Shown here: in pieces, positions 7,602-52,955 of the stretch
Position numbering within the stretch: position 1 is the first letter of the stretch
Layout: each line of letters starts with the position of its first letter
Assembly (NCBI GenBank): GCA_041303415.1
Contig: JBFYPG010000187.1
Location: 9,902 to 73,901 of the forward strand
DNA length: 64,000 nucleotides
Origin: Bacteroidales bacterium
Lineage (GTDB): Bacteria > Bacteroidota > Bacteroidia > Bacteroidales > VadinHA17
Direction: 5' to 3'
Notes under the pieces: generated by a model
Seen by the model: the letters and a program-made list of their open reading frames with translations, nothing else
The model's database searches: none
What the model was told of the DNA's origin: nothing
Program-made: the position numbers and the translations under genes

Positions 7602-7874
7602 GACTTTTATATTAAAACTAATTCAATATTCAAGATTCAAAATTCAAGATTCAAAATTTCAGGTTGCTTGTACCTGTAGAATTCAGCAAAAAAAGAGCCA
7701 AAGAATAAAAGTACTAATTTTAAAGGACATATGTAATAAAATAGGGTGAATTTCCATTGCTGGCAATGGTTCGTTCATGACCTGAAAGGGTGTGCTCGTC
7801 AAAAAATGGACGCTGTTCTTGGAAAAACTGCGAATTCTCCGTAAATTTTAAAGTTTTTTTCTACAACCTGTCCT
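7602..7874. promoter_or_regulatory. Divergent intergenic region that must contain the promoters of the caspase/sensor operon (-) and the giant gene (+)
   Basis: A 273-bp AT-rich spacer lies between divergent start codons at 7601 (-) and 7875 (+). It contains a 7-bp-periodic tract ATTCAAN x about 6 at 7621-7662. TA-rich/TTTT words sit 20-35 nt upstream of 7875 (TAAATTTTA at about 7842-7850) and are only near-matches to the Bacteroidetes TAnnTTTG -7 box. The exact promoters are not resolved. Confidence 0.45.
7621..7662. repeat. Heptad tandem tract ATTCAA[T/G/A] x about 6 (equivalently a 14-mer TTCAAGATTCAAAA x 2 at 7629-7656)
   Basis: Read directly: ATTCAAT ATTCAAG ATTCAAA ATTCAAG ATTCAAA ATTTCAG. 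It begins 20 nt upstream of the caspase-gene start codon. Confidence 0.8.
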
Positions 7875-10800
7875 ATGAGAGTACCCTCTTTGAAAAGGCT
7901 TGTACTGGTCACAGCCTTCTCAGCAACAGTTTTCAGCCTGTTCTCGCAGACCTTCGTTGAACAGACAGGAATATCCCTGCCGGGCATACAGCGGGGCACT
8001 GTGGCATGGTGCGACTACGACAGGGATGGTGATCTTGACATCCTGATATCCGGAGATAATCTTACCAGCATATACAGGAATGGAGGAAGCAATACTTTCA
8101 CTGAACAAACTTCAATAACCCTTGAAGGGGTATGGCAGGGTTCAGCGGCATGGGGCGACTTCAACAATGACGGTTACCCCGATATCCTGGTGACAGGCTA
8201 CAGTTCGTCAGGCGCCATTTCAAAAGTCTACCGCAACAACGGCAACAATACCTTCACCGGGCAGACAAGCATAATCCTCAAGGGGGTAGGCGACAGCTCA
8301 GTTGATTGGGGAGATTATGATGGTGACGGAGATTTGGATATTTTACTGACTGGAGACGGATATTCAAGAATATACAGCAATAACAGCGATAATACTTTTA
8401 CCTGGCAAACAGGGATCAGCCTGCGAAGTATTAGCAGCGGCTCAGCAGCCTGGGGCGATTATGACAGGGATGGTGATCTTGATATTTTATTGACCGGTTG
8501 GGATAATTCAAGAATATACCGGAATAATGGTAATAATACTTTTTCAGAACAAACCAGCATCAGCTTTATAGGAATTTCTTGTAGTTCAGTGGACTGGGGC
8601 GACTATGATAACGATGGCTATCTGGATATTTTATTGACAGGAAGCGACAATCCCGGGACTCCATTGTCCAAAATCTACCGCAACAATGGAGATAACAGCT
8701 TCTCAGAACAAACCGGTATTGGACTAACAGGAGTAAACAATGGCTCTGCGACCTGGGGCGATTATGACAATGATGGTTTACCGGACATATTATTAACAGG
8801 TAATAGTTCCGGTGGTCCGGTTTCCAAAGTATACAGGAATAACGGCAACAACACTTTTTCTGAGCTGACAGGAATAACTATTCCCGGTGTCGATTATAGT
8901 TGTGCAGTCTGGGGCGATTATAACAATGACGGAAAGCTTGATATCCTTATGGCGGGAGATACACACAGCGGCAATGTGACTAAAGTGTACCAGAACGCCA
9001 CATCAACGGCCAACAGCGCACCGGCGACGCCAACAGGACTAAACGGAGCCGCAGGCACTTCATCAGTTACATTTAACTGGAATACCGTTACAGGCGATGC
9101 AACTCCATCCGGAGGTATGAGCTACAATTTACGCATAGGTACAGCCCCCGGTGGGACAGATGTTATATCTCCCTTATCGCTTGCTTCAGGGTCAAGGCTG
9201 TTGCCCGAAACCGGCAACACCGGATTAAGTGTAAATTTTACACTTAAAAATCCGAAGAAAGCAACATTTTACTGGAGCGTTCAGGCTGTTGATAACGGGT
9301 TCAAGGCCGGTGCATTTGCTTCTGAACAGCTGGTGACTTTTTCTTCTTCTATCCAGGCTTCTTATGTATTTGCCGACAGTATCAGGGAATCGTCAATTCA
9401 GCTTAACTGGATACGGGGGAATGGCACAGCCTGTGCTGTCTTTGCAAAAAAGGACAACAGCGGTACGGCATCTCCTTCAAATGGAACCTTGTACACTGCA
9501 AACAGTGTTTTTGGCAATGGTCAGCAGATAGGATCAACCGGATGGTATTGCATTTATAACGGGACAGGATCCACTGTTAAAGTGACCGGACTGGCACCTG
9601 TTACCGAATATATCTTCCAGGTTTTTGAATACGAGGCAGGGCCTTCATATTATTCGCAAACAGGAGAGTCGAATCCCGCAGTGATCCAGACAAATGGATT
9701 TGAGGAGCAGGCCGGTATTGCGCTTCAGGGAGTTAATAACGGCTCTGCCGAATGGTTTGATTATGACAGGGACGAAGACCTGGATATCATCCTTGCAGGT
9801 GACGGTATGACAAAGATCTACAGGAATGATGGCAGCAATGTATTTAATGAACAGGTTGGAATAATACCGGAAACCATAAGCAACGGTTCGGTTTCGACCG
9901 GAGATTATAACAACGATGGTTTCCCTGATATTCTTATGTCAGGGGATGGTCCCGGTGTTACGAAAATTTACAGGAACAATGGCGGCATCTCATTCACTTT
10001 TCAGTCGGGTATTATTCTGCCCGCAATAAGCAACGGATCTGCCGAATGGGGTGACTATGACAATGACGGTGATCTGGATATTGTTATTGCCGGCAACGGT
10101 TTTATCAGGATATACCGCAATAACCATGATAACACGTTTTCGTGGCAGTCTGAAATAGAACTTCCGGGTACTGCTGAAAGCTCCACAGAATGGGGCGACT
10201 CTGATAACGACGGTGATCTGGACCTGCTTGTGACAGGTTGGAACACCACACGGGTTTACAGGAATAATGGAGATAATACCTTCACTGAAATAACAGGCCA
10301 GCCATTTCATGGGGTTTCATGGGGCTCAACATCATGGGGCGATTATGATAATGACGGATGGATCGATATACTGCTTACCGGAAACGGAGCTGCAAGGGTT
10401 TACCGTAACAATCATGATAACACATATTCATATCAGTCATCGATTATTCTGGCAGATACCTGGAACAGTTCCGGTGCATGGGGCGATTTTGACAACGATG
10501 GCTATTCTGATATACTATTAACCGGATGCTGTCCGGCAGGATCGGTTTCCAGCGTTTTCAGGAATAACGGGAATAATACATTTTCTGAACAGAAGGGCAT
10601 TATTCTTACCAGTATATGCAATGGAACGGCCGTCTGGGGTGATTATAACAGTGATGGCAGACTGGATATACTTTTATCGGGAGGTTCCCCAACCGGAAAT
10701 ATAACAAAGGTATATTCCAATTCACTCTTGAGTTCCAACGCTGTTCCGCCGGCACCATCAGGTTTGTCATCGGTTGTAAATGAAACCTCAGTTTTGCTTC

Positions 10801-13800
10801 AGTGGAATGATGTAACGGGAGATGCCACCCCGGTTAACAGTATGAGTTATAATATCCGTATCGGAACTTCACCGGGCGGCAGTGAGATTAAATCGCCTCT
10901 TTCACTCTCATCCGGCAGAAGGCTGATATCAGCAAATGGCAATGCACAATTGAATAACCAGTTCATCCTGAGAAACCTGCCGAAAGGGACTTTCTACTGG
11001 AGCGTTCAGGCTGTTGACAATGGATTTTCAGGCGGGCCGTTTGCTGCCGAGCAATCTTTTACATGGTCCGTATCAAATCCGGCTTCAGGTATAATAGCCG
11101 ACAGCATTAAAACATCATCGCTGATACTTAACTGGACCCGGGGAAACGGATCAGCATGTGCAGTGTTTGCAAAGAAAGAAAACAGCGGATCAGCCTCACC
11201 TGTCAATGGAACTGCTTATACTGGTGATCCTGTTTTTGGAAATGGCACCCAAATCGAAACAAGCGGATGGTACTGTATTTATAACGGAACAGGATCATCT
11301 GTGAAAGTCACGGGGCTTGATATATTGTCATATTACATTTTCCATGTGATAGAATATGAGGCCGGACCTTCTTATTATTCTGCTGTGGGAGAAAATAACC
11401 CTGCAGTTTTACAGACAAACGCATTTACCCTGAGATCTGATTTCACTTTCCCGAACCTTAATCACGGTTCACCTGAATGGTGCGACTATGACAGGGATGG
11501 TGATCTGGATGTGCTTCTCGCCGGTGACGGATGGTCAAAGATATATCGCAACGAAGGCGGAACTGATTTTATTGAACAGACGGGAATAGTACTCGTCGGG
11601 GTCAGCAACTGCGCCATGGCATGGGAAGATTATGATCTGGACGGTTATCCTGACATCCTGATAACCGGTGATGGACCATCCGGCCAGATTTCAAAAATTT
11701 ACAGGAACAATCAGGACAGCACTTTTTCAGAACAGGCAGGTATTGTATTGCAGGGCGTGCGAAGCAGCTCTGTTGCCTGGGGCGATTATGACAATGACGG
11801 GGACCCGGACATACTGCTTACAGGAAGCGGGTTCTCACAGATTTACAGCAATAACGGCAATAACACTTTTACATGGCAGAACGGAATAAACCTTCAGAGT
11901 ATTGATGACGGCTCGGCAGCGTGGGGCGATTATGATCGTGATGGAGATCTTGATATAGTGCTTACCGGATGGGGGAATTCAAAAATTTACAGGAATAACG
12001 GGAATAACTCATTTACTGATCAAACCACTATTTTCCTCCAGGGAGTTCACAACAGTTCGGCTGTATGGGGCGATTATAATAATGACGGCTATCCTGATAT
12101 CCTGCTGACAGGATGGGACAATATAAAGCAAATATCAAAGATATATCGTAACAATGGTGACAATACATTCACTGACCAGGCATCGATTATAATGAAAGGC
12201 ATTCAGGGAGGTGCAGCAGCCTGGGGTGACTTTGATAATGACGGATTTATTGATATCCTTCTTTCCGGCTGGAGCTCTTCGGGTAATACAACAAAAGTAT
12301 ACAGAAACAATGGAGACAATACATTCACTGAACAGACCGGAATAGAACTTCCGCAGGTATCAAACGGTTCAGTATCATGGGGCGACTTCAATAATGACGG
12401 CAGGCTTGACATATTTCTGACAGGTGCAGGGGATGGGTATAATTTATCTGCAATTTTTCAGAATAACCTGCCACAATCCAATACTGCTCCTTCAGCGCCA
12501 TCAGGGCTCTCTTCAACAACTGATGAATCATCAATAACTTTTAACTGGAGCGGCGTTACAGGTGATGCCACACCTCCGGACGGAATGAGTTATAATGTCA
12601 GAGTGGGAACAACACCCGGCGGCAGCGATGTGGTCTCTCCCGTTTCGCTGGCATCGGGAACACGTCTGATCCCGGTATATGGCAATGCCAGGTCAAATTA
12701 CAAATTTGTCCTGAAAAATCCTGAAAAGGCAACTTATTACTGGAGCGTACAGGCAATCGATAATGGTTTCCTGGCCGGTGCTTTTGCTGCTGAACAGTCT
12801 GTAACATTCTCATCTCCTCTCCAGGCTTCGATGTTGTTCACTGACAGTATCATGCCGTCGTCGTTAAAACTTAACTGGACCCGGGGTAACGGAACAGCCT
12901 GCGTTGTATTTGCAAAAAAAGCAAACACAGGCACTGCAGCACCGGCAGATGGCACATCATATACCGCCAATAGTGTGTTTGGCAGCGGTTCTCAGATACT
13001 CACAAGCGGATGGTACTGTGTTTACAACGGGTCAGGGACGAACGTGAAAATCACGGGACTGGAACCGTTAACATATTATATTTTCCAGGTAATCGAATAT
13101 GATTCGGGCCCTGTCTATACTACAATAACAGGTCAGAATAATCCTGTTGTACAGCAGACAAACGCATTCACAGAGATAACAGGGCTGACAATCCCGGGGG
13201 TTAATAACAATTCAGCAGCATGGTGCGACTATGACAGGGACGGCGACCTTGACCTGCTGACTGCAGGTGACGGAATTACAAAGATTTACAGGAATGAGGG
13301 CAGCGATACTTTCAATGAACAGAGCAGCATAGTTCTGACCGGAGTATCTAACAGTGGTCTGGCCTGGGGTGACTATAATAATGACGGTTATCCCGATATA
13401 CTGCTGACAGGCGATGGCCCCTCGGGACCTGTTTCAAAAGTTTACCGCAATAACGGGAACAATTCTTTTACCGAACAGACAGGAATTACGCTTATGGGAG
13501 TAAGCAACAGCTCCGTGGCATGGGGCGACTTCAATAATGACGGGCTGTCAGATATACTTTTATCGGGACATAATAATACCGGAAACGGTATTACAAGGAT
13601 ATACCGGAACAATGGTGATAACACATTTACCTGGCAGGAGAGCATAGTACTGACAGGAGTCTCGGAAAGTTCGGTTTCGTGGGGCGACATTGATAATAAC
13701 GGATTTTCCGATATTCTCGTCAGAGGCTGGGGCGGCACAAGGCTATACCGCAACAACGGCGATAATACTTTCACAGAACTGTCAACTACAAACTGGAAAG

Positions 13801-28800: not shown

Positions 28801-31800
28801 ACCGCGGGATGGCTCAGCCAGAGGTTGGCCGGCCTTATGATGCAAATTCAAAGTTTGGAAACGGCACTCAGATAGATACAACCGGATGGTATTGTGTATA
28901 CAGGGGACCCGATAACAGTGTTACAATCTCAAACCTTGAATCGCTGACAGAATATATTTATAATGTAATTGAGTGCGACGGGGCAACGAGCTACTTCAAC
29001 TTTGATGGCAGGCAGGGCAATCCATTGGTTGTCAGAACCGGGACATTTACTGAAATGAATACCATAAGCATCTATGGCATAAGGAATGGTTCCATTGCCC
29101 CGGGAGATTATGATAATGACAGTGACATGGATGTTCTGGTAACAGGCAACGGAACTTCAAGGATTTACCGGAACATGGGCAATAATATTTTCGCCGCGCA
29201 AAATGCTATTATACTTACCGGAATATCAAATGGATCTTCAGCCTGGGGTGATTACAATAATGATAATTACATTGATATACTTATCACCGGGCTTTCAGCC
29301 GCCAATATTTCTGTCTCGAAGATCTTCAGGAACAACGGCAACAATACATTTACTGAACAGACAGGAATAAATATCCGGGGAGTATCCGGCAGCTCGGCTG
29401 CCTGGGGCGATTATGATAATGACGGATACACTGACCTTATAATTACCGGAAAGTCAGAAGCCAACGATTATATCTCAACCATTTACCGCAACAACAGGGA
29501 TAACACATTCACGGAGCAGACAGGCATTTCATTCCCGGGAGTCTGTTCCGGGTCGGTAGCATGGGGTGACTATGATAACGACGGCGACCTGGATATCCTG
29601 CTTACCGGCTTTAACAACAACAACATACCTGTTTCAGGGATTTACCGTAACAATGGCGATAACTCATTTACCGAGATGACAGGCATCGGCCTTAAGGGCG
29701 TTGCGAGAAGCTCTGTTGACTGGGGTGATTATGACAACGACGGCGACCTCGATATAATTCTGTCAGGAGAGTCAGGAACAAGCGTTGTAGAGTATATAAC
29801 CAGGGTCTACAGAAATAATGGCGACAGTACCTTTACCGAACTGAACAGCGCCCTGCTCAGGGGAGTACATTCAGGATCGGTCGCCTGGGGAGATTACGAC
29901 AGCGACGGATTATCAGATATCCTGCTTACAGGGTACTCGGGCACAATCGAAAGCCAGTACTGCTCAGCCGTGTACCGGAATAATGGCGATAATTCATTTA
30001 CAGAGCAGCCGGGAATAAACCTTCTGAAGGTCTATAACAGCTCCGTAAAATGGGCCGATTTTGACAAAGACAGTAAGCCTGATATCTTCCTGGCAGGGTA
30101 TAATCCCAATTATGGTTCTGTCACAAGGATATACCGGAATCAGTATCCGAAACCGAACAATAGGCCATCGCCGCCTGCCGGACTCTCAACAACCAGCGAT
30201 GAAACATCACTGATCCTGAGCTGGGATATCGTTCCCGGCGATGAGACACCCGGGGCCGGCATGAGCTACAACGTGAAGATAGGAACATCTCCGGGATCGG
30301 GTGATGTTGTGACAGGGATGGCACTGACCTCAGGCTCAAGGCTTGTTCCTGAACCAGGGAATGCCCGCAACGATACGTTATTTATACTTAAATACCCGCA
30401 AAGGGCAACCTATTACTGGAGTGTTCAGGCTATTGACAACGGCTTTGCACCCGGACATTTTGCAGCAGAACAATCATACATGTTCACAACCCTGCTTCAG
30501 GCATCAAAGCTGTTTGCCGACAGCATTCAGGTTACGGCCCTTACACTTCACTGGAACAGGGGCAACGGAACCGCCTGTGCTGTTTTTGCCCGTAAAGGCA
30601 GCGGAGGAAATGCAGTGCCTGAAAACAATACTGATTATACGGCAAACTCAATTTTTAGCTCAGGATCACAGATCGGGACAACGGGTTGGTACTGTGTCTA
30701 TAACGGCAGTGGCAATAAGGTCAGGATCACCGGGCTTGAACTTCTCACAGATTACACATTCCAGGTTGTGGAATATGACCCGGGTCCGCTGTATTTTACA
30801 CAGACAGGCCAGGGCAATCCGGTCGTTGTTCAAACCAGTATTTTCTCAGAGCAGACAGATATCAGCCTTACCGGATTATCATACGGATCAGTTGCATGGG
30901 GCGATTACGACAACAGTAATTACCTCGATATACTGATCACGGGTACGGCTTCCGCAACATATTCAGGAGCTGCAGCTAAGATTTACCGCAACAACGGTAA
31001 CAATACTTTCTCCGACCAGGTAGTGATCAGTCTTCCCGGTGTCACAAACGGTTCTGCGCTCTGGGGCGATTATAATAATGATGGTTATACGGATATTCTT
31101 CTGACCGGACTTGATATAAACAATACATCAGTTTCAAGGATTATCAGGAACAACGGCAATAATTCCTTTTCCGAACAGACCGATATCAGCCTGGCAGGAG
31201 TCAGGGAAAGCTCAGCAGAATGGGCAGATTTTAATAATGATGGCAAACTCGATGTAATTATTACCGGAACTTCAGCTTCGGGTAATGTGACAAAGATTTA
31301 CAGGAATTCAGGGGCAAATCTCTTCAGTGAACAGCAGGGATTAAACCTGCCCGGAGTAACAAACGGCTCCGTGGCTTGTGCTGACTACGACAACGATGGC
31401 TTTACTGACATACTGCTTACTGGTTCCGGATTATCGAGGATATACCGTAATGCCGGCAACCCCTTTATGATGGAGTTTACGGAACAGCAGGGAATTGATC
31501 TGCCCGGGGTTACCAAAAGCTCGGCGGCATGGAGCGACTACGACAGCGACGGTGACCTGGATGTTCTTCTTGCCGGATACGATATTACAGGTAATATTCC
31601 GGTTTCTAAGATATTCAGGAATAATAACGGAGAATTCGAAGAATCGGGCATAATACTCATTGGAGTAGCGGGATCTTCAGTTGCCGACAATTCAGTAGCC
31701 GGGGCCAGCGAAACAATCTGGGGCGACTACGACAACGACGGTGATCCGGATCTGCTCCTGACAGGGGAGACCTCTTCAGGGCGAATCTGCAGGGTATACA

Positions 31801-34800
31801 GCAATAATGGCAACGGCACTTTCAAGGACCAGTCAAACTTCAGCCTTCCCGGAGTGAGGTACAGCTCAGCAGCCTGGGGAGACTATGATAATGACGGCGA
31901 CCTTGATATCATTATTTCCGGAGAACAGGGTACTTCGCGCATCACAAGGATCTTCAGGAACGAGATTCTTACATTCAACACTATCCCCGAGGTACCTTCA
32001 GGCCTCGGTGTCAGCGCCGCTGCGCCGAATACAATACTTTACTGGAACTCAGTCAGAACAGATGAGACTGCTTACAGAGGATTGACTTACAACATCAGGA
32101 TGGGAACAACTGCAGGAGGCAACCAGATAATACCGGCAATGTCGTCAGCTTCAGGCAAAAGGAGAATATCAGCAATGGGGAACAGCCAGCTTGATACATT
32201 TTTCGTGTTCCAAAACCTGAAGCCGGGAACCTATTACTGGAGTGTTCAGGCAGTGGACAACGGATTTGCCGGAGGCGCTTTTGCGGAAGAGAAAAGCTTT
32301 ACCATCGACAGCATCCAGGCCAGCAGGCTTGAAGGCAAACTGGTGACCGCAAACAAAAACGCCCTGCTGATAAAATGGAAGAATGGAAACGGAGAGCGCC
32401 GGGTAGTGTTCTGTAAGCAGGGATCAACAGGACTGGCTCTGCCGTCAGCTAATACCACCTATTCTGCCGATAACATATTCGGCTATGGCGATCAGATAGG
32501 GACCACCGGGTGGTACTGCGTATTCAATGGCAGAGGCGACAGCACAATAGTTACAGGGCTTTCACAGGGAATACCTTATTCATTCCATGTGGTTGAATAT
32601 GTCGGGAACACAGGATCAGAGATCTATTACAGGTCATCCGGAGAAAATAATCCGGGGATATTCTCCTGCGGATTATTCTCAGAACAATCAGATATTGAGC
32701 TTGATAAGGTATACAACAGTTCAGTTACATGGGGTGATTATGATAATGACGGAGACCTGGATATTTTACTAACAGGGAACAATTATCCTGAATCAGAATC
32801 AACGGCGATATCAAAAATATTCCGGAATAATGGAAATAATTCATTCACCGAACAGACCGGAATAAACCTGTTCGGCGTGCAGAACGGATCAGTGTCATTC
32901 GGAGACTATGACAACGATAACGATCTCGATATCCTGCTTACGGGACTTACTGAAGGCGCTTTCCCTGTTACAAAGATCTACCGGAACAACGCCAATAATA
33001 CTTTTACCGAACAGATAGGGATCAGCCTGATCGGAGTAAGCTATTCATCAGCAGGCTGGGGTGACTTTAACAATGACGGCTGGCTCGATATTCTGATTAC
33101 CGGCCAGGGAGCAGGATCAAACCTGATCTCAAAAGTCTACAGGAATAACCGCGATAATACTTTCACTGAACAGGTTGAAATAAACCTTGAACACGTTGCA
33201 AAAGGCTCCTCTTCGTGGAGCGATTATGACAACGACGGCGACCTGGATATTCTGATCACAGGAAACAACCTCTCAGGATCGCAAAATTCGGTTTCCATGG
33301 TCTATGCCAATAACAGCGACAGTACCTTTACACATCTGGACAAGACAGTTCTGCCGGGTGTTATGAACAGCTCCGCATCATGGGGCGATTACGATAATGA
33401 CGGCGATCCTGACATACTTCTGACAGGATATAACAATGAAGGCACAGTAGTCTATCTGTCAAGGATTTACAGGAACAATGGCGACAGTACATTTACCTGG
33501 CAGTCCGGAATCAAATTGGAGGGTGTTGCAAACAGCTCTGCCGCATGGGGCGACTTTGATAATGACGGAGATCTTGATATATTGATATCAGGCCGGCTTG
33601 TTAACGGCGGGTATACAACAAAAATTTACAGGAACGACAGAATTAACATATTTGCGGAAGTAACTGATATAACATTTACCGGTGTCGGTTACGGTTCGGT
33701 TGTATGGGGTGATTATGACAATGACGGGGATATAGATATTCTTATGACCGGGCAGAGCGCCGGCTCAACCGTTGTTACAAAGATCTACCGCAACAACGCA
33801 ATTATGAAGGCTGGTGATTACCAGTCTAACAGGAGGGCTGAAGCGCCGGCAAACCTAACAGCAGTGCGTCTTCCTGAGGGTATTAAACTATCATGGTCGC
33901 CGGTAAGGGCAGATGAAACACCTCCGGGGGCGATGACATACAACATTAATATTCAGCCTGAGGCTGGTGGATTGCCGGCTATGTCTGCCCTGGCCGATAC
34001 CGTCACTGGATATCGCAGGATTGTTGCGATGGGTAATGTCCAGACTGATACAACTTTCCTTATAAGGAACCTGATCCCCGGTAAATACCGCTGGAAAATA
34101 CAAGCGGTTGACCAGGGTTACAGGGGAGGCCAGTGGGCGATTGGTCCTGTGATCAATGCAAAGAATGTCCAGGCATTCTTTGATGCCGATACAGTTTGCA
34201 GGAAACAGGTAACCGGGTTTACAAACCGTTCGACGTCTTTCAGGGATCCAATACTCACGTATTCATGGGATTTCGGCGACGGAACTACTGATGATACGGA
34301 AGATGCGGTTCATACCTACACTACTTCGGGAACCCACACTGTAAGACTGGCAGTCTCTACAGCATTTGACACCGATACTTTGTTTAAGGAAGTTTACATA
34401 TACCCTGTCCCTGTCATTGATTTTTCAACGGAAGGATTATGTGAAGGTGTTGAAACCGTGATCAGTAACCTGACAGTCACAACAGGATTTACAATCGACA
34501 GATGGAACTGGGATTTCGGCGATGAACGTGAGTCTTCGCAGAAGAATCCGGGATCACATAATTACCTGAATTCAGGCAATTACTCAATGACGCTGATTGC
34601 AGAGACATCAAATGGCTGCGTCGATTCAACGCAAAAAAACATTACTATTGCAGATGCCCTCCCGGAACCGGCTATCTACGCAAAAGGCCCGAAAGTCTGG
34701 TACCTTGCCAGCAGCAATGATACAGCGAAATATTACAGATGGTATTGCAATTATGAGCTTATCGATGGCGCTGATAAGAATGTATATGTAGCGAACAGGA

Positions 34801-35162
34801 AATACGGAGTCTATTATGTGGCCATTTCCGATAATGATGTGTGCTATACGAACAGCGATTCAGTCAGCATACCTACAGGTTTCCATACCGGTATTGAGGA
34901 TATTGATCCTTTTCTGACGATGAATATTTATCCCAATCCGACATCGGGGAAGATCACTGTTGATATGGAGAACCAGGAGTTCGGCGACCTGAATATAACA
35001 ATTGTTACAATTGACGGACGGGAGGTTTACAGCAACAAGTTTGAAAAGTCCACAGAATATTTCTCAGTTGAGATTGACCTGAGCGACAGGGCGGAAGGGA
35101 CCTATTTTGTCAGGTTTACATTAGGGAAATCTTCAGCTGTGAGGAAGATTATAATAGAATAG
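7875..35162 (+). CDS. Giant secreted FG-GAP/VCBS-repeat protein (9,095 aa): signal peptide, 15 x [seven-bladed propeller + FN3-like domains], 2 PKD, an Ig-like domain and a T9SS C-terminal sorting domain
   Basis: A single stop-free ORF of 27,288 nt. The ATG at 7875 is followed by the signal peptide MRVPSLKRLVLVTAFSATVFSLFSQ. There are 105 blades of the form W-G-D-[YF]-[DN]-N-D-G-x-x-D-I-L-(L/I)-T-G ... (I/V)-Y-R-N-N-G-(D/N)-N-T-F-(T/S)-E-Q. FN3-like units read PPAPSGLS..W..V.GD.TP...MSYN.RIGT.PGG...YYWSVQA.DNG and NWTRGNG..CAVFAKK...GTA.P..GT.Y.A...FG.G.QIG.SGWYCVYNG...V.VTGLEP.T.Y.F.V.EY. WDFGDG PKD motifs are at about 34267 and 34510. The terminal sequence is MNIYPNPTSGKITVD...GTYFVRFTLG...RKIIIE. 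Confidence 0.93.
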   Translation: MRVPSLKRLVLVTAFSATVFSLFSQTFVEQTGISLPGIQRGTVAWCDYDRDGDLDILISGDNLTSIYRNGGSNTFTEQTSITLEGVWQGSAAWGDFNNDGYPDILVTGYSSSGAISKVYRNNGNNTFTGQTSIILKGVGDSSVDWGDYDGDGDLDILLTGDGYSRIYSNNSDNTFTWQTGISLRSISSGSAAWGDYDRDGDLDILLTGWDNSRIYRNNGNNTFSEQTSISFIGISCSSVDWGDYDNDGYLDILLTGSDNPGTPLSKIYRNNGDNSFSEQTGIGLTGVNNGSATWGDYDNDGLPDILLTGNSSGGPVSKVYRNNGNNTFSELTGITIPGVDYSCAVWGDYNNDGKLDILMAGDTHSGNVTKVYQNATSTANSAPATPTGLNGAAGTSSVTFNWNTVTGDATPSGGMSYNLRIGTAPGGTDVISPLSLASGSRLLPETGNTGLSVNFTLKNPKKATFYWSVQAVDNGFKAGAFASEQLVTFSSSIQASYVFADSIRESSIQLNWIRGNGTACAVFAKKDNSGTASPSNGTLYTANSVFGNGQQIGSTGWYCIYNGTGSTVKVTGLAPVTEYIFQVFEYEAGPSYYSQTGESNPAVIQTNGFEEQAGIALQGVNNGSAEWFDYDRDEDLDIILAGDGMTKIYRNDGSNVFNEQVGIIPETISNGSVSTGDYNNDGFPDILMSGDGPGVTKIYRNNGGISFTFQSGIILPAISNGSAEWGDYDNDGDLDIVIAGNGFIRIYRNNHDNTFSWQSEIELPGTAESSTEWGDSDNDGDLDLLVTGWNTTRVYRNNGDNTFTEITGQPFHGVSWGSTSWGDYDNDGWIDILLTGNGAARVYRNNHDNTYSYQSSIILADTWNSSGAWGDFDNDGYSDILLTGCCPAGSVSSVFRNNGNNTFSEQKGIILTSICNGTAVWGDYNSDGRLDILLSGGSPTGNITKVYSNSLLSSNAVPPAPSGLSSVVNETSVLLQWNDVTGDATPVNSMSYNIRIGTSPGGSEIKSPLSLSSGRRLISANGNAQLNNQFILRNLPKGTFYWSVQAVDNGFSGGPFAAEQSFTWSVSNPASGIIADSIKTSSLILNWTRGNGSACAVFAKKENSGSASPVNGTAYTGDPVFGNGTQIETSGWYCIYNGTGSSVKVTGLDILSYYIFHVIEYEAGPSYYSAVGENNPAVLQTNAFTLRSDFTFPNLNHGSPEWCDYDRDGDLDVLLAGDGWSKIYRNEGGTDFIEQTGIVLVGVSNCAMAWEDYDLDGYPDILITGDGPSGQISKIYRNNQDSTFSEQAGIVLQGVRSSSVAWGDYDNDGDPDILLTGSGFSQIYSNNGNNTFTWQNGINLQSIDDGSAAWGDYDRDGDLDIVLTGWGNSKIYRNNGNNSFTDQTTIFLQGVHNSSAVWGDYNNDGYPDILLTGWDNIKQISKIYRNNGDNTFTDQASIIMKGIQGGAAAWGDFDNDGFIDILLSGWSSSGNTTKVYRNNGDNTFTEQTGIELPQVSNGSVSWGDFNNDGRLDIFLTGAGDGYNLSAIFQNNLPQSNTAPSAPSGLSSTTDESSITFNWSGVTGDATPPDGMSYNVRVGTTPGGSDVVSPVSLASGTRLIPVYGNARSNYKFVLKNPEKATYYWSVQAIDNGFLAGAFAAEQSVTFSSPLQASMLFTDSIMPSSLKLNWTRGNGTACVVFAKKANTGTAAPADGTSYTANSVFGSGSQILTSGWYCVYNGSGTNVKITGLEPLTYYIFQVIEYDSGPVYTTITGQNNPVVQQTNAFTEITGLTIPGVNNNSAAWCDYDRDGDLDLLTAGDGITKIYRNEGSDTFNEQSSIVLTGVSNSGLAWGDYNNDGYPDILLTGDGPSGPVSKVYRNNGNNSFTEQTGITLMGVSNSSVAWGDFNNDGLSDILLSGHNNTGNGITRIYRNNGDNTFTWQESIVLTGVSESSVSWGDIDNNGFSDILVRGWGGTRLYRNNGDNTFTELSTTNWKGASWGSSSWGDYDNDGWLDLLLTGDGYTYVYSNNRNGSFSEVTNVVLDQVWQGSGSWGDFDNDGYADILLSGYTSTTSITKVYRNNGDKTFTYQPGIALTGIGNGNAIWGDYNNDAKLDIFLIGNNANGNTARLFKGGMPTSNSSPSAPSGLSATANEESIIFRWNRVAGDATPAKAMSYNVRLGTTPGGSEIVSPMSLPAGKRLAPDPGNAFADTLFIYKNPPKATYYWSVQAIDNGLSAGPFASEQSITYSYSAQASHVSADSIRALDMVIRWVRGNGSGCAVFAKQGSSGTALPLNGTSYAADPEFGNGSQIGTSGWYCVYNGTGTNVRVTGLEPATTYIFSVVEYEPGLAYYTSTGADNPGIIRTHLFAEQSGITLPGIGNRSSVSWCDYDRDGNLDILLTGDGISKIYRNEGSGSFIEQTEIILEGVWGAASAWGDYDCDGYPDLLITGWISAGYNASRIYRNNGNNTFTWQSSIALIGVGNGAVAWGDYDNDGDPDIILTGSRYSKIYRNNGDNTFTELTGISLYGVEVSSVEWGDYDLDGDLDILLSGQTSSNGMTKLFRNNGDNTFTEQNGIEFNRTTDGSAAWGDYNNDSYPDVLVAGWGNSYLYKNNGNNTFTWQSNIVTEGIHQCTVNWADYDNDGLLDVLLTGNDNNNNLISKVFRNTGSNSFTEQIDIVLRGVNRGSAAWGDYDNDGKIDILLTGNTTSGNITRIYKNYTASANAAPPAPAGLSAVVNESSLVFRWNRVSGDATPAKGMTYNIRIGTVPGGSDVVPPMSLSSGSRLIPWVGNTGSDTLFILRYPEKATYYWSVQAIDNGLKAGAFASELSIAYSSRIQASQVAAVNVEANILRLEWRRGNGSASAVFAKKGTTGTALPADGTTYSADQVFGSGNQIGTSGWYCVYNGTSSGVNISGLEPLTNYIFHVIEYDPGPSYYTQTGQANPALIMTNVFSRQTGISLQGVSGSSVAWGDYDGDGDPDILLTGYKLNNERISRIYRNDGSNTFTEQTGVYLQGVQNGSAEWCDYDNDGDLDILISGEGISKIYRNNGAGSFSEQSGIVFPGMNQSSVAWGDYDNDGFQDILLTGHNSNWITISKIYRNNGNNSFTEQSGITLPPMGNSTVAWGDYDNDGYRDILLGAYKIYHNNSDNSFSELTGVDLYGLNESSVSWADYNNDGFLDIFITGSSNAESFAKLYRNNGNSTFTEESGLNIKGIYQGSATWGDFDNDGNTDLLLTGGGLVKIYRNQGNNTFAEYPDLLQAGLQNSSAAWGDYDNDGRLDILLSGQSGSGYITAIYKNVAGSVNTAPEAPIELSSSIDETSIVFKWNRTTGDITPGKGMSYNVRAGTNSGAVNTISPMSLSSGARLIPAMGNAFSDTLLVLRNPKKANYYWSVQAVDNGYKAGMFAAEQSVTYALSVQASNVFADSIKTTALKLYWTRGNGSACAVFAKKSDSGTASPVNGTVYNADPVFGSGSQIGSSGWYCVYNGIKNYVVVTGIEAAVGYIFHVIEYEAGPSYYTQTGQSNPFMLQPSILSEQSSISLANLGNGASVAWGDYDNDNDLDILITGDNQSLIYRNDGSNIFTQQNGITLQGIWQGSVAWGDYDNDGDLDILLSGAINTGSVSKVYRNNGNNSFTDQTDIILTGLSSCSAAWVDFNKDGRLDISLAGNGNSGSVTSLYRNDGNNLFTGLAGFGIPGLSSSSIAWGDYDNDGYPDALVSGNSPEGTISRIYRNNGNSTFTWQEGISLSGINDGAVAWGDYNNDGLQDILISGNGISKLYRNNGNNTFSEQTGIQLEGLSSSSAAWGDYDNDGYADLILTGWTNTSKAVSILYHNDGNNTFSEKTDVYLTDANDGSAAWGDYNNDGRLDLLLSGTDEYGARFTRIFRNYAPIANVPPAAPADVSVTGTSTSLILHWEGVEGDATPAGSMNYNVRIGTSPGGSDIVSPMSLHTGSRLLPKHGNAWSDTLFILNTPAKATYYLSVQAIDNGFAAGPFSTEQTYSYSQSIQASLVIADSVQATTLKLLWTRGNGTACAVFARKAESGTASPADGTTYTANPLFGSGSQIGTTGWYCVYGGTDNHVKITGLEPLTTYVFHVIEYEPGPSWYTQSGQGNPLVVQTSLFSEIKNSGLRGISSGSAAWGDYNNDGDLDVLLTGYDLSGRITRLYRNNGDSTFTGQSDIIFPQLSESSAAWGDYDNDNDLDLILTGSSDERLISQVYRNDGSNTFTGQTEISLTPVNQSSVAWGDYDNDGWLDILLSGDNGNGQITKIYRNYGNGTFVNQPSIMLPGLSGGSVEFGDYDNDADLDILISGNNYNRIYRNNGDNSYSELSEVYLRGVSGGEAIWGDYDNDRDLDILVTGNGSTVIYRNNGNNIFEEQTGIALEGIHGASAAWADYDNDGNIDILLAGYDNTWIPVSKVYRNNGSNSFTEQTGIRLEGAGNSTVAWGDQNNDNKLDILLAGSNRNSNIIRLYSNNILSSNILPPAPSGLTAAATESSIILKWNRITGDETPSGGMMYNVRIGTAPGKGDVVTPMALSSGRRLLPGRGNAQSDTAFILKNPQKLTYYFSVQAIDNGYSAGPFAAEQTITYTYSLQASRIVTGEVQGSKLELVWTRGNGAGCAVFARKGTGSTAAPADGAVYTADEYFGSGTQIGTSGWFCVYNGTGSEADVSGLEGLSQYTFHVIEYDAGLKYDTRSAQNNPLMVQTGLFDKQTGITIPGLSGSSMAWGDYDNDGDPDLLITGSSSTENISRIYRNEGGNSFTEQTGISLQGIRRGSPAWGDYDNDNDLDILLTGSGYSKVYTNNGDNTFTEQTDIALIPVQNSSSAWGDYNNDGYMDILITGNSAGGNVSKVYRNNGNNTFTEQTGILLQGVSLGSACWGDYDNDHDLDILLTGSTTDNVSGAIVRIYRNNGDNTFTEQTDISIYGVFENSAAWSDYDNDGDLDITISGQSSIGFISRIYRNNGDYTFSYQASISLPGLWQGAITWGDFDNDGDPDLILAGTVQGGSYGSMVRFFSNNNDNNFTEMPEIVLPGIYNGTVKAADYNMDGNLDLAVSGLDLNNFLYSGLFLNRSSVANDPPPAPSGLTAASDETSLTLSWMRVTGDITPSGGIGYNVRIGTSPGGTEIVTPMALSSGERLIPVNGNSGSDTVFVYRAPRKTTYYWSVQAIDDAFNAGPFSAEQTYTYSISVQASQVAVERVEGSGINLKWTRGNGTGCLVFAKKGSDVSALPEEGTTYTAGAYFGSGSQIGTSGWYCVYSGTGSSVAISGLESLTTYTFHIVEYDPGPVYDTRTAAGNPLITETGLFDEQTGIVLQGVSQGSVAWGDYDSDGYPDVIVTGSGYTRIYRNNGDNTFALTVTLPGVFNSSAAWGDYDNDGDIDIMLTGSSSSRIYRNDGSDTFTELPGAGLTGVSSGSSAWNDYDSDGDMDILQTGRLSSGEALSRIYLNNGNGTFTGQPQISLPNVFYSSAAWGDYDNDGLSDILITGTTNGSSSGALSKIYRNNGDNTFSEQTGIVLPGVYYSSSIWFDYDADGDLDILLTGNTVSQSLLPVSKIYRNNGENSFTEQTAINLTGVYQGSVTWGDFNNDGYADIILTGKSAAGEFISKAYLNNGENNFTEQKSIVLPGVINSSVQMSDYDRDGRPDLLVSGQASSGLISGIHRNMSAVPNSPPLPPAGLSALATENALVLKWNRVTGDVTPDKSITYNVRIGTSSGGTEVVSPMALASGSSLIPYPGNAGEDTVFTLRYPRKATYYWSVQSADNGLMTSPFAAEQTFDYTVSVQASQVYAGNIQGSGIDLTWRRGNGSFCAVFAKEGTSGIAAPDNGVTYTSSQVFGSGSEIGTSGWFCIYSGTGNKTQVTGLQPVKSYIFQVIEFDAGLLYYTQSGQGNPVVVRTGLFSMQTGVTIPGVVNGSASWGDFDNDGDPDILITGNSASGRLSKIYRNNGDNTFTENTGVTLPVISNGSGAWGDYDNDRDLDILLTGTTNGTAAGALSKVFRNDGGGLFTEQPSIILEGVYHSSAAWGDYDNDGWTDILLTGTTDGSSSGAVSRIYRNNGNNTFTKQTGIELPGVYYSSAAWGDYDNDNDLDILIAGNQLSRIYRNNGDNTFTEQSGITLPGISGGSVAWGDYDNDSDLDILITGSSLSGNNSRIYRNNGDNTFTAQTSVSLTAVSGSTGIWGDYDNDGLTDISITGKAGATSADIITKFYRNIGNNSFAEQPNLSLEGIYLSSFAWGDYDNDAKPDILLTGQNPDYTPVSRIYRNLSLTANTPPATPSGLLTVISDTSVLFTWNKAADDETPSGGLSYNIRIGSSSGSDDIVASMSLTAGKRLVPGTGNAQTGTSYLLKYPKKETYFWSVQAIDQGFLAGAFSEEKSFSYTASVQARMVFADNIRPTSADLHWHRGNGSVCTVFARKGSSGTAVPADGTTYNAGSQFGTGSQIGTTGWFCVYNGTGNNVSITGLEPMNNYIFHVIEYEEGPLYNILKGQGNPLMIQTDLFLEQTGIKLNAVSSGSAAWGDYDNDKDLDILLTGSGISKIYRNNDNNTFTEQTTITLPGVTNSSSSWGDYDNDGDLDILLTGGNISRIYRNNSDNTFSEQSAIMLPGVSYSSSAWGDSNNDGFPDILLTGRLASQDYFSGIYLNNRNNTFTEQTGILLTGVNNSSVAPGDYNHDGYLDILMTGNSTSGPVSKIYLNNRDNTFTEQTSVSLEVVAYSSASWCDYDNDEDLDILITGNSISKVYRNNGDNTFTEQSGIILQGVAYSSSAWGDFDNDGYSDILITGTTDGAASGAVSKFYRNNGDNTFTEQTGINLTGVYNSSVACGDYNNDGSLDVLLAGTTANGQNISKVYANFTENTRPVPVKPELISSTVTDTTIVFRWKKLRQDNIPVKGISYNIRMGESPSSSNILSSMTLPSGLRLIPARGNVGSDTIFELRNPRRANYYWSVQAIDNRYGAGEFSTEQSFNFGNWMQATYLVASDIQASRLTLNWTRGNLSDCIVFAKKGNRGMAQPEVGRPYDANSKFGNGTQIDTTGWYCVYRGPDNSVTISNLESLTEYIYNVIECDGATSYFNFDGRQGNPLVVRTGTFTEMNTISIYGIRNGSIAPGDYDNDSDMDVLVTGNGTSRIYRNMGNNIFAAQNAIILTGISNGSSAWGDYNNDNYIDILITGLSAANISVSKIFRNNGNNTFTEQTGINIRGVSGSSAAWGDYDNDGYTDLIITGKSEANDYISTIYRNNRDNTFTEQTGISFPGVCSGSVAWGDYDNDGDLDILLTGFNNNNIPVSGIYRNNGDNSFTEMTGIGLKGVARSSVDWGDYDNDGDLDIILSGESGTSVVEYITRVYRNNGDSTFTELNSALLRGVHSGSVAWGDYDSDGLSDILLTGYSGTIESQYCSAVYRNNGDNSFTEQPGINLLKVYNSSVKWADFDKDSKPDIFLAGYNPNYGSVTRIYRNQYPKPNNRPSPPAGLSTTSDETSLILSWDIVPGDETPGAGMSYNVKIGTSPGSGDVVTGMALTSGSRLVPEPGNARNDTLFILKYPQRATYYWSVQAIDNGFAPGHFAAEQSYMFTTLLQASKLFADSIQVTALTLHWNRGNGTACAVFARKGSGGNAVPENNTDYTANSIFSSGSQIGTTGWYCVYNGSGNKVRITGLELLTDYTFQVVEYDPGPLYFTQTGQGNPVVVQTSIFSEQTDISLTGLSYGSVAWGDYDNSNYLDILITGTASATYSGAAAKIYRNNGNNTFSDQVVISLPGVTNGSALWGDYNNDGYTDILLTGLDINNTSVSRIIRNNGNNSFSEQTDISLAGVRESSAEWADFNNDGKLDVIITGTSASGNVTKIYRNSGANLFSEQQGLNLPGVTNGSVACADYDNDGFTDILLTGSGLSRIYRNAGNPFMMEFTEQQGIDLPGVTKSSAAWSDYDSDGDLDVLLAGYDITGNIPVSKIFRNNNGEFEESGIILIGVAGSSVADNSVAGASETIWGDYDNDGDPDLLLTGETSSGRICRVYSNNGNGTFKDQSNFSLPGVRYSSAAWGDYDNDGDLDIIISGEQGTSRITRIFRNEILTFNTIPEVPSGLGVSAAAPNTILYWNSVRTDETAYRGLTYNIRMGTTAGGNQIIPAMSSASGKRRISAMGNSQLDTFFVFQNLKPGTYYWSVQAVDNGFAGGAFAEEKSFTIDSIQASRLEGKLVTANKNALLIKWKNGNGERRVVFCKQGSTGLALPSANTTYSADNIFGYGDQIGTTGWYCVFNGRGDSTIVTGLSQGIPYSFHVVEYVGNTGSEIYYRSSGENNPGIFSCGLFSEQSDIELDKVYNSSVTWGDYDNDGDLDILLTGNNYPESESTAISKIFRNNGNNSFTEQTGINLFGVQNGSVSFGDYDNDNDLDILLTGLTEGAFPVTKIYRNNANNTFTEQIGISLIGVSYSSAGWGDFNNDGWLDILITGQGAGSNLISKVYRNNRDNTFTEQVEINLEHVAKGSSSWSDYDNDGDLDILITGNNLSGSQNSVSMVYANNSDSTFTHLDKTVLPGVMNSSASWGDYDNDGDPDILLTGYNNEGTVVYLSRIYRNNGDSTFTWQSGIKLEGVANSSAAWGDFDNDGDLDILISGRLVNGGYTTKIYRNDRINIFAEVTDITFTGVGYGSVVWGDYDNDGDIDILMTGQSAGSTVVTKIYRNNAIMKAGDYQSNRRAEAPANLTAVRLPEGIKLSWSPVRADETPPGAMTYNINIQPEAGGLPAMSALADTVTGYRRIVAMGNVQTDTTFLIRNLIPGKYRWKIQAVDQGYRGGQWAIGPVINAKNVQAFFDADTVCRKQVTGFTNRSTSFRDPILTYSWDFGDGTTDDTEDAVHTYTTSGTHTVRLAVSTAFDTDTLFKEVYIYPVPVIDFSTEGLCEGVETVISNLTVTTGFTIDRWNWDFGDERESSQKNPGSHNYLNSGNYSMTLIAETSNGCVDSTQKNITIADALPEPAIYAKGPKVWYLASSNDTAKYYRWYCNYELIDGADKNVYVANRKYGVYYVAISDNDVCYTNSDSVSIPTGFHTGIEDIDPFLTMNIYPNPTSGKITVDMENQEFGDLNITIVTIDGREVYSNKFEKSTEYFSVEIDLSDRAEGTYFVRFTLGKSSAVRKIIIE
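7947..34165 (+). repeat. Array of 15 in-frame super-modules (about 1.72-1.85 kb each) inside the giant CDS
   Basis: The W codon of the Y-Y-W-S-V-Q-A motif (or its equivalent) falls at 9273, 10998, 12741, 14487, 16239, 17979, 19743, 21501, 23289, 25062, 26859, 28617, 30417, 32238 and 34092. Approximate module starts are 7947, 9699, 11421, 13161, 14910, 16660, 18400, 20165, 21922, 23710, 25485, 27280, 29045, 30840 and 32670. Modules 1-14 are 7 blades + FN3-A + FN3-B. Module 15 is 7 blades plus a variant FN3-A only. Copies are diverged at the DNA level, with only about 20-26-nt identical words. Confidence 0.85.
34170..34660 (+). other. Two PKD domains within the giant protein
   Basis: QAFFDADTVC...YSWDFGDGTTDDTEDAVHTYTTSGTHTVRLAV and FSTEGLCEGV...WNWDFGDERESSQKNPGSHNYLNSGNYSMTLIAETSNGC. 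These carry the classical WDFGDG...H.Y...G.Y.V.L PKD signature. Confidence 0.8.
34921..35159 (+). other. T9SS (Por) C-terminal sorting domain of the giant protein
   Basis: The last ~80 aa are MNIYPNPTSGKITVDMENQEFGDLNITIVTIDGREVYSNKFEKSTEYFSVEIDLSDRAEGTYFVRFTLGKSSAVRKIIIE. This has the (I/L)YPNP(T/A)xG ... G(T/I/M)Y(F/L)(V/L) ... K(I/L)(I/V) pattern of type-A CTDs (TIGR04183-like). Confidence 0.85.
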
Positions 35163-35601
35163 AGGTGCTTGTTGCTGGTTGCTTGTTGCTGGTTCCCTTT
35201 GAATTTTGAGTCTACTCCGAAAAGTTTTTTTACCACCAAGGCTCCAAGGCACAAAGTTACTCCAAGAATAAGTCATTGAAAGATAAACTCTTGGTGAACC
35301 TTGGTGTCTTTGTGTCTTCGTGGCAATTTTATTATTTGGATTTATCTGGAATTTGGAATCTGAAATCAAACAACCACGGAGACACAGAGTGCACGGAGAT
35401 ACACAGAGTCGCCTCTTCCCGCCCTCTCGCCCTCCATTGTCCGCCGAAGTCCCGAGTACTCGGGACGAAGGCGGATCCCCATCTCCCCATCCTTCTTCTT
35501 CGTCCCAACTTTCTCTGCTTTAGTCAAATAAGTCGGGGTTCATTTGCTTTTAACAGGGATTTTGAGTAATTTTTCTATTTATTTTGTTAAACCTGATTGA
35601 G
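35163..35601. repeat. Repeat-rich spacer between the two giant paralogues
   Basis: There is a tandem 14-mer GCTTGTTGCTGGTT x 2 (35167-35194, heptad-periodic TTGCTNG). The words CACCAAGG/CCTTGGTG and CACAAAG/CTTTGTG occur on both strands (35232-35323). There is a tandem CACGGAGA(C/T)ACACAGAGT x 2 (about 35384-35420). The stem CCGCC-GAA-GTCCCGAG-TA-CTCGGGAC-GAA-GGCGG (about 35441-35474) has a perfect 8-bp palindromic core. Confidence 0.7.
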
Positions 35602-52123: not shown

Positions 52124-52207
52124 TAGCGGATTATAAATTGCCGGTTTGCGGGATAAACATTAGTTTTGTGCCTGCGTTTTTACTTAATGAGAAATTAAAT
52201 ACTGCAG

Positions 52208-52951: not shown

Positions 52952-52955
52952 CCTG

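Follow-up and report, generated by a model that had tools for sequence, protein, structure and literature searches.

The 64-kb stretch of Bacteroidales DNA analysed here (contig JBFYPG010000187.1, positions 9,902 to 73,901; below, the window) carries a giant gene for a polypeptide in which 15 seven-bladed FG-GAP/VCBS-type propellers alternate with FN3-like spacers, between an N-terminal signal peptide and a C-terminal sorting domain (CTD) of the type IX secretion system (T9SS). The protein is best read as an anchored, Ca2+-stabilised, multivalent surface fibre that would bind glycans, matrix or cells, and a probability of about 0.6 is given to this reading for architecture and function jointly. 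The domain architecture and the sorting signals are near-certain, and confidence in the function is moderate.

Architecture of the giant protein

The gene (7875..35162, forward strand; its parts are listed in Table 1) is a single open reading frame (ORF) of 9,095 codons with an ATG start. A first-pass annotation, made from the DNA letters without database searches, had noted that this frame is free of stops, and this was confirmed by ORF calling and translation: there are no internal stops, against 352 and 778 in the remaining two forward frames across the same interval. The precursor is very acidic (pI 4.26), and its computed mass of 975.6 kDa agrees with the roughly 1 MDa estimated earlier.

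The N-terminus, MRVPSLKRLVLVTAFSATVFSLFS/QTF (the slash marks the predicted cleavage site), shows the features of a Sec/SPI signal peptide: its n-region is basic, the hydrophobic core comprises 15 residues and Gln occupies position +1. Such a Gln follows the signal-peptide cleavage site in Bacteroidetes (the Q-rule; PMC5837995). Homologues of the protein show the same SQ/xF[VT]EQT pattern. At the other end, Por_Secre_tail (PF18962; E 1e-16, 61.3 bits, cutoff 27) and the NCBIfam model of the type-A sorting domain, TIGR04183 (46.8 bits, cutoff 23), both match the final 77 residues. The signal peptide and the Por-type CTD that had been read from the sequence at first pass were thus both recovered. 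In the window, three genes bear such a CTD: the giant gene, its downstream neighbour (35602..42771) and a small gene at 48548..49048.

The division into modules rests on Pfam, on a hidden Markov model (HMM) of the protein's own blades and on HMMs of the spacer halves. A BLASTP search with one module against the whole giant protein returned 15 consecutive copies of 575-620 aa each, with a mutual identity of 43-62%. FG-GAP_3 (PF13517) was found in 15 of 15 modules at 159-237 bits (cutoff 26.9; E 1e-47 to 1e-71), in six to eight stretches, as was FG-GAP (PF01839; 42-87 bits, cutoff 22.1), so that the expectation of FG-GAP/VCBS calls above cutoff was borne out. The HMM of the protein's own blades gave exactly 105 blades in 15 runs of seven. 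The same number had been counted before with the strict motif W-G-D-[YF]-[DN]-x-D-G-x-x-D; the count stands, but the motif itself accounts for just 59 blades, the others carrying degenerate variants. The pattern D-x-[DN]-x-[DN]-G-x-x-D fits 84 of the 105 blades, with near variants in the rest, and by eye a loop of the D-x-D/N-x-D type, a predicted cation site, can be seen in all of them. A similar qualification holds for the landmark YYWSVQA, which had been described as recurring every 1,725-1,854 nt. Spacing and frame are as described for all 15 landmarks, but the exact form occurs in only eight of them, and all 15 are reached when one or two substitutions are allowed (FYWSVQA, YYLSVQA, YRWKIQA and others).

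Pairwise identity between blades is 52-58% irrespective of their position in the propeller, blade 7 alone being distinct. Blades 1-5 are almost interchangeable in sequence and the best match of a blade lies at the same position in only 30 of the 105 cases, which places the history at the level of blades beyond resolution. The most variable parts of the propellers, in length as well as in sequence, are the B-C and D-A loops. Each of the 15 propellers is preceded by a segment F[ST]EQTGIxL, including propeller 1 at the mature N-terminus, and this segment copies the consensus of the D-strand and D-A loop of the blades. It presumably acts as the "velcro" strand and makes blade 7 complete; the mature N-terminus of the protein, QTFVEQTGISL, resembles the closing D-strand of propeller 1.

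Fourteen of the spacers, of 234-242 aa, hold two FN3-like domains apiece, and the 15th consists of one FN3-like domain followed by two PKD domains. HMMs of the spacer halves found FN3a 15 times and FN3b 14 times, or 29 FN3-like domains. This is the number predicted in the first-pass annotation, together with two PKD domains and one match to TIGR04183, both of which were also found. Pur_ac_phosph_N, an FN3-like family, passes its cutoff in two modules only (33 vs 30). The C-terminal PKD domains are matched by PKD_4 (PF18911) with 85.4 bits in two stretches and by PKD (PF00801) with 49.6 bits.

The AlphaFold2 (AF2) model of module 3 has a predicted local distance difference test score (pLDDT) of 87.8 and a predicted template modelling score (pTM) of 0.80. 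It contains 28 beta-strands, corresponding to seven four-stranded blades, at a pLDDT of ~90, followed by two seven-strand sandwiches with strands at 352-451 and 458-567. When the model was compared with the PDB using Foldseek, the lectins AAL2 (4tqm) and PVL (2bwr) came out on top (E ~1e-11 over ~345 columns, at 20-23% identity), and integrin alpha-V ranked after them. The spacer superposes on the tandem FN3 domains of titin, NEO1 (neogenin), PTP-delta and fibronectin (E 1e-7 to 1e-9). A profile search of PDB sequences pointed to CRTAC1 (E 2e-7) and integrin alpha-V (E 2e-5). Strand count, sandwiches and structural matches together uphold the module as it had been proposed, with seven blades and two FN3 domains.

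Conservation and origin of the gene

Since the sequence comes from a short-read metagenome-assembled genome (MAG) and several paralogous FG-GAP genes lie at the locus, an artefact has to be considered, either a chimeric concatenation of paralogous three-module genes or a decaying relic. The modules of the giant gene are ~63% identical to each other at the DNA level, with a maximum of 77% for any stretch of at least 100 nt, and collapse or mis-joining of repeats is unlikely because no pair of modules exceeds this value. A second assembly, GCA_041303425.1, holds a contig (JBFYPF010000001.1, reached through the neighbouring caspase gene) that matches the window at 99.97% identity along 13.8 kb and has a called product of 9,095 residues. 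The Logan assembly of SRR28346262 is 100% identical across the 5' 3.9 kb of the giant gene.

Orthologues occupy the same chromosomal position in two more lineages. In a MAG from Lake Pavin sediment (Bacteroidia, JAPLDX010000048.1) the orthologue is colinear: residues 24-7439 of the window protein align with residues 1258-8680 of its counterpart at 65% identity, a value that drops to 50-56% when the modules are aligned out of register. The Lake Pavin protein has two additional N-terminal modules, ~17 in total, and its frame extends from ~30,585 to 61,376 of the contig, or 10,262 codons, as derived from the coordinates of the downstream locus. It is interrupted by a single in-frame TAA (positions 53142-53144) at the junction of FN3a and FN3b in the 13th module, for which reason it was called as two genes, the latter encoding 2,737 aa; candidate explanations for the TAA are an error in sequencing, a nonsense mutation of recent date and read-through. 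The metagenome assemblies ERZ27256921 and ERZ28653714 in ENA encode a product of 9,274 residues at the same position. Common to the syntenic loci is the order giant gene, three- or four-module paralogue, omp641, u209, u285, followed further downstream by Exo_endo_phos, MutL, two rhomboids, Exo_endo_phos, PALP and H+-PPase. With the divergence of the modules, the stop-free frame, the second assembly and these orthologues set against the short-read source, the paralogues at the locus and the split Lake Pavin gene, an artefact is very improbable; it is largely refuted and essentially excluded, and the giant gene is taken as real and conserved.

A profile of the 15 modules was used to search 1.84 billion representative proteins and brought up ~150,000 FG-GAP relatives. 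The top scorers are complete proteins that share the plan of the giant, in that they combine a signal-peptide-like N-terminus, an iterated unit of one seven-bladed propeller and FN3-like sequence, and a CTD of the Por_Secre_tail or FlgD_ig type. Among the best 150 listed, proteins with one FN3 domain per module have up to 13 modules, as in proteins of 7,066 aa (P0136; 13 modules, 91 blades) and 7,048 aa (P0137; 12 modules); a further multi-propeller T9SS relative is MCX6301696.1 (P0140) of a Bacteroidia bacterium. The module type with two FN3 domains, of which the giant has 15, reaches 4-5 copies at most in the same 150. No claim to the largest protein of its kind is made, because these 150 miss both the 9,095- and the 9,274-residue protein. 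A word-index search with a single module gave matches of less than 1,000 aa only, and in an exact look-up in the protein collection both the giant protein and the TTG-start version of its paralogue were absent. Few of these relatives have been given names, and the names read "FG-GAP-like repeat-containing protein" or "hypothetical protein".

Among GTDB species representatives, searched with a profile of the spacer, the two-FN3 module occurs mostly in MAGs of Bacteroidales, Bacteroidia and "Rikenellaceae" whose sources are sediments, fens and groundwater. A three-module protein of ~2,350-2,400 aa is by a wide margin the most frequent form there, and such homologues share the companion genes of the giant. 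The paralogue directly downstream in the window is of this form: its order is P-a-b, P-a-b, P-a (P, propeller; a and b, FN3a and FN3b), two PKD domains, Ig_7 and a type-A CTD, and it probably begins with the ATG at 35602, not with a TTG. Module 15 of the giant and the last module of this paralogue are each other's closest match in sequence, and the terminal modules of the giant and of the three-module form are orthologous. The comparison indicates that the giant gene arose by internal expansion of the widespread three-module plan. Judged by the divergence of the modules to ~50% identity, the expansion is old, and it predates the split between the organism of the window and that of the Lake Pavin MAG, having been present in their common ancestor. 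The number of modules varies across lineages (15, ~17, 3-4).

The FN3b domain has a conserved Cys pair and a GWYC motif. Proteins of other Bacteroidota contain it on its own, as long tandem arrays (loci L082, L037, L038 and L060), with 15 copies in one ORF of 3,193 aa. On account of these arrays FN3b is regarded as an independent, widely amplified repeat family.

The first-pass annotation had considered a strictly iterated arrangement of one seven-bladed propeller and two FN3 domains at this scale to be possibly new. That holds only in part: iterated T9SS relatives are numerous and size-matched orthologues exist, but none of them is characterised in the searchable literature. Searches for FG-GAP or VCBS together with T9SS or giant genes did not bring up a characterised relative, and a survey of giant bacterial genes (10.1101/2023.11.21.568195) does not mention the class. 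The family is common in sequence databases, and no member appears to have been characterised. Known already are all the domains, the secretion route and the iterated propeller-FN3 plan, and the size-matched orthologues have been deposited without comment. The giant protein does not represent a new type of molecular system; within its family it is an extreme member, and well conserved.

Proposed function and its rivals

The precursor would cross the inner membrane through Sec, after which the string of ~5-nm folded domains could plausibly traverse the T9SS translocon domain by domain. By analogy with other type-A cargo, the CTD would be removed and the protein attached to the outer surface via anionic lipopolysaccharide (LPS), to which type-A cargo is generally linked covalently (PMC9143113). 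Outside the cell a Ca2+-stiffened beads-on-a-string fibre is envisaged, in the order of 150-200 nm if extended, whose propellers would owe their stiffness to ~100 predicted cation loops; these A-B loops lie on the "bottom" faces, beside the conserved C-D loops. The 15 "top" faces, made up of the variable B-C and D-A loops, would together provide multivalent binding of the lectin or adhesin kind, with glycans, exopolysaccharide, other cells and particles as candidate ligands. In integrins and related lectins, it is the top face with its B-C and D-A loops that binds the ligand. VCBS propellers typically bind carbohydrate or protein, and links to bacterial self-recognition have been proposed for them (PMC9218822).

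The binding fibre is favoured because the closest folds are those of lectins and integrin and because a bacterial precedent exists in Bap1/RbmC. PVL and AAL2, the best structural matches, are seven-bladed fungal lectins for N-acetylglucosamine and belong to the VCBS supercluster with its DxDxDG loop motifs (PMC8023676). They are soluble single-domain proteins, unlike the giant, and the likeness is one at the level of the fold. Integrin alpha and CRTAC1 share with it the seven FG-GAP blades, A-B loops that carry DxDxDG Ca2+ hairpins, and Ig/FN3-like "leg" domains after the propeller. An integrin chain, however, has one propeller with Ca2+ loops in 3-4 blades and pairs with a beta-subunit, whereas the giant has 15 propellers with loops in nearly all blades and no partner domain. 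A protein of the CRTAC1/ASPIC type was rejected, since UnbV_ASPIC had no match in the 16 segments scanned with Pfam.

Among bacterial propeller adhesins, the secreted biofilm proteins Bap1 and RbmC of Vibrio cholerae set the best functional precedent; their propeller, closed by a velcro strand, binds the Vibrio exopolysaccharide VPS (PMC10102183). As a class for the giant they were rejected: they have a single propeller with eight blades and beta-prism inserts and lack a T9SS signal, whereas the giant has seven blades per propeller and no insert. Neither was among the best 50 structure matches or the PDB sequence-profile matches (E up to 0.001). SprB, the gliding-motility adhesin of Flavobacterium johnsoniae, is likewise a giant and highly repetitive T9SS cargo that forms a surface filament (PMC9143113). 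It differs in having a type-B CTD, anchoring through PorP-like proteins and no propeller repeat, and an SprB-type assignment was rejected because the giant matches the type-A model only, not the type-B model TIGR04131. The SprB gene is accompanied by accessory genes, among them one for the PorP-like outer-membrane barrel protein SprF; the PorP/SprF family was not among the matches of omp641, which hits OMP_b-brl_2 only. A polymorphic toxin was rejected as well, as a toxin or enzyme domain was found nowhere across the 9,095 aa. The role as an adhesin, or in matrix and cell contact, that had been suggested at first pass is consistent with the lectin and integrin folds and with Bap1/RbmC.

Several points weigh against the binding fibre as formulated here. 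Expression, localisation and binding of the giant protein are predictions from its sequence. At 976 kDa it would exceed the largest established T9SS cargo, SprB with 669 kDa (PMC9143113). T9SS core genes are absent from the 64-kb window, and the secretion competence of the host is assumed from its phylum and from the three CTD-bearing genes. Pfam fn3 (PF00041), which the first-pass annotation had expected to identify the spacer domains, stays below its gathering score in every module (16.7-24.3 bits vs 25). The AF2 model of module 3 was built from an alignment of the 15 paralogous modules only, and its TM-scores to solved propellers are moderate (0.53-0.55 for PVL/AAL2). That the seven blades close into one propeller is suggested indirectly, by the strand count and the superposition on PVL and AAL2. 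When identities between orthologous and between paralogous modules were compared by class of loop, the gap was largest in the top-face loops; the divergence ratio is ~1.3-1.9 and similar across classes. The higher conservation of these loops among orthologues can equally well reflect plain rate heterogeneity and does not amount to evidence for specialised ligand faces. Finally, the TAA in the Lake Pavin orthologue, if real, indicates that the giant gene can be lost.

The best of the alternatives, itself unlikely, is a matrix cross-linker that would be shed after T9SS export and cross-link the cell's own exopolysaccharide, as Bap1/RbmC do in Vibrio biofilms. Fifteen propellers on a very acidic chain rich in cation loops would suit the cross-linking of a polymer, and the propellers of Bap1/RbmC bind VPS directly and probably multivalently (PMC10102183). 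Release is at odds with the covalent attachment to anionic LPS that is general for type-A cargo (PMC9143113), genes for exopolysaccharide biosynthesis were not found in the window, and the Bap1/RbmC propellers are eight-bladed, with no significant sequence match to them seen.

Lower in the ranking, and improbable, stands a passive coat or spacer without a specific ligand, that is, a rigid Ca2+-stabilised brush against phage, predators or particles, or a structure that sets the distance between cells. The near-uniform identity of the 105 blades (~52-58% whatever their position) is as expected for a stable scaffold, the variability of the loops is as expected under relaxed constraint, and the number of modules drifts among lineages. 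Opposed to this are the nearest solved folds, which are those of ligand-binding lectins and integrin, and the top-face loops, which keep 54-55% identity between orthologous modules in a protein pair that is 65% identical overall.

If expressed, the giant protein would be among the largest predicted T9SS substrates, ~1.5 times the size of SprB, and would test how the translocon handles a megadalton chain of folded 5-nm domains. It stands for a numerous class of surface proteins in Bacteroidota that has gone unstudied, namely integrin-like poly-propellers with fixed companion genes, and this class probably shapes attachment to particles, polymers and neighbours in anoxic sediments. The divergent, regular array of 15-17 modules is also a clean natural case of module expansion from a three-module ancestor, and it offers soluble single-propeller units for studies of lectin activity or Ca2+ binding.

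Neighbouring genes and other features of the window

Table 1 Features of the giant gene and its neighbours in the 64-kb window
Feature	Coordinates	Strand	Remarks
Giant gene	7875..35162	+	9,095-aa, 975.6-kDa, pI 4.26 precursor
Sec/SPI signal peptide, aa 1-24	7875..7946	+	predicted cleavage before Gln25; read from sequence and Q-rule (PMC5837995)
Module 1	7983..9728	+	propeller aa 37-383, FN3a+FN3b aa 384-618
Module 2	9729..11456	+	propeller aa 619-956, FN3a+FN3b aa 957-1194
Module 3	11457..13196	+	propeller aa 1195-1540, FN3a+FN3b aa 1541-1774; module used for AF2
Module 4	13197..14954	+	propeller aa 1775-2120, FN3 pair aa 2121-2360
Module 5	14955..16694	+	propeller aa 2361-2705, FN3 pair aa 2706-2940
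Module 6	16695..18446	+	propeller aa 2941-3285, FN3 pair aa 3286-3524
Module 7	18447..20198	+	propeller aa 3525-3867, FN3 pair aa 3868-4108
Module 8	20199..21956	+	propeller aa 4109-4456, FN3 pair aa 4457-4694
Module 9	21957..23744	+	propeller aa 4695-5048, FN3 pair aa 5049-5290
Module 10	23745..25517	+	propeller aa 5291-5639, FN3 pair aa 5640-5881
Module 11	25518..27317	+	propeller aa 5882-6244, FN3 pair aa 6245-6481
Module 12	27318..29075	+	propeller aa 6482-6827, FN3 pair aa 6828-7067
Module 13	29076..30872	+	propeller aa 7068-7425, FN3 pair aa 7426-7666
Module 14	30873..32708	+	propeller aa 7667-8036, FN3 pair aa 8037-8278
Module 15	32709..34154	+	propeller aa 8279-8644, single FN3a aa 8645-~8760
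Two PKD domains, ~aa 8770-8835 and 8845-8921	34182..34637	+	PKD_4 E 2.7e-24, 2 stretches
~95 aa between second PKD domain and CTD	34638..34925	+	no Pfam match above cutoff
T9SS type-A CTD, aa 9018-9094 of 9095	34926..35156	+	PF18962 and TIGR04183
Paralogue, 2,389 aa, 3 propellers	35602..42771	+	21 blades; common family form
omp641	42782..44707	+	signal peptide, two NTF2-like domains, small beta-barrel
u209	44734..45363	+	small exported protein, 66-85% conserved, after omp641
u285	45363..46220	+	exported protein, third in downstream trio
Exported caspase-family protein	5769..7601	-	Peptidase_C14 and CARDB; divergent from giant gene
Sensor-like protein	2503..5763	-	signal peptide, Reg_prop propellers, Y_Y_Y, transmembrane segment aa 763-785, SpoIIE/PP2C phosphatase

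Close downstream of the paralogue lies the trio of omp641, a predicted outer-membrane protein, u209 and u285. The NTF2-like domains of omp641 occupy ~aa 27-182 and 205-359 and are followed by an OmpA/OmpX/OpcA-like barrel (aa 388-640); the protein matches OMP_b-brl_2, and its AF2 model, built from a 44-sequence alignment, has a pLDDT of 82. A gene with FG-GAP_3 and Por_Secre_tail is located directly upstream of the omp641 homologue in 11 of the 11 loci inspected, and homologues of u209 and u285 follow it in most of the eleven. For u209 and u285 neither Pfam nor NCBIfam gave a match, even at E up to 5. In GCA_016709865.1 the omp641-u209-u285 cassette is present twice in tandem.

Upstream, the caspase gene, whose product carries a signal peptide, and the sensor-like Reg_prop/PP2C gene form a conserved divergent pair that in other MAGs stands beside three-module homologues. 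In the sensor-like protein, the Reg_prop/Y_Y_Y part is predicted to be periplasmic and the PP2C phosphatase cytoplasmic. The caspase protein is 78-90% identical in relatives whose FG-GAP FN3-spacer matches are ~42-44% identical, and at locus L016 the whole series of Reg_prop-PP2C gene, caspase gene, FG-GAP gene, omp641, u209 and u285 is retained at 36-48% protein identity. This conservation suggests, without proving it, that the neighbours form a functional cluster with the giant gene.

The most far-reaching view of such a cluster, given the same low credence as the passive coat, is that the giant is the expanded arm of an undescribed, conserved T9SS-linked surface apparatus of sediment Bacteroidales. 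Its Ca2+-dependent lectin fibres would have 3 to ~17 propellers, omp641 and the two small exported proteins would hold or service them, and their control or processing would fall to the caspase-like protease and the Reg_prop/PP2C protein, which resembles a glycan sensor. With a conserved ligand face of its own on every propeller, one fibre could respond to 15 different surface cues (particle, prey, kin). Ranked last among the functional alternatives, and quite improbable, is a recognition arm in surface sensing or self-recognition, which would work together with the exported caspase-like protease and the Reg_prop/Y_Y_Y-PP2C sensor, for example through ligand-triggered proteolysis or signalling. 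It can draw on the retention of the cluster at L016, on the signal peptide of the caspase protein and on the ties of VCBS proteins to self-recognition (PMC9218822). The synteny, however, is found mostly among related Bacteroidales MAGs, the giant gene of the Lake Pavin MAG has another FG-GAP gene and not the caspase gene directly upstream, a mechanistic precedent is lacking, and the NCBIfam match of the caspase domain is far under its cutoff (59 bits vs 140).

Scans of the window and its intergenic regions for Rfam families, tRNAs, sigma-70 promoters and terminators gave no match, the promoter model being one that does not cover Bacteroidota. Between the divergently transcribed caspase and giant genes, the 14-mer TTCAAGATTCAAAA is present in two tandem copies (7629..7656). 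The 440 bp that separate the giant gene from the paralogue are AT-rich except for a GC-rich patch of ~130 bp (35370..35500) with an 8-bp hairpin, GTCCCGAG-TA-CTCGGGAC, for which neither an Rfam match nor a terminator-like site was found.

A gene on the reverse strand (46386..48527) encodes an exported protein of 713 aa that combines long repeats of the NVF[IL]G type with a Peptidase_S74 intramolecular-chaperone domain at its C-terminus (E 2e-13). This protein, which also weakly matches the N-domain of a Bdellovibrio "mosaic adhesive trimer", looks like a chromosomal trimeric fibre of the phage-tail-fibre type. It adjoins the gene for a mini-protein of 166 aa (48548..49048, reverse strand) that consists of little beyond a T9SS CTD of type A. 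The Lake Pavin and ERZ27256921 loci lack the two genes at the corresponding place, and at locus L025 they are found beside the Reg_prop and caspase genes. Further downstream on the forward strand (50315..54922), MutL and then two tandem rhomboids, flanked by two Exo_endo_phos genes, are kept in all syntenic relatives examined.

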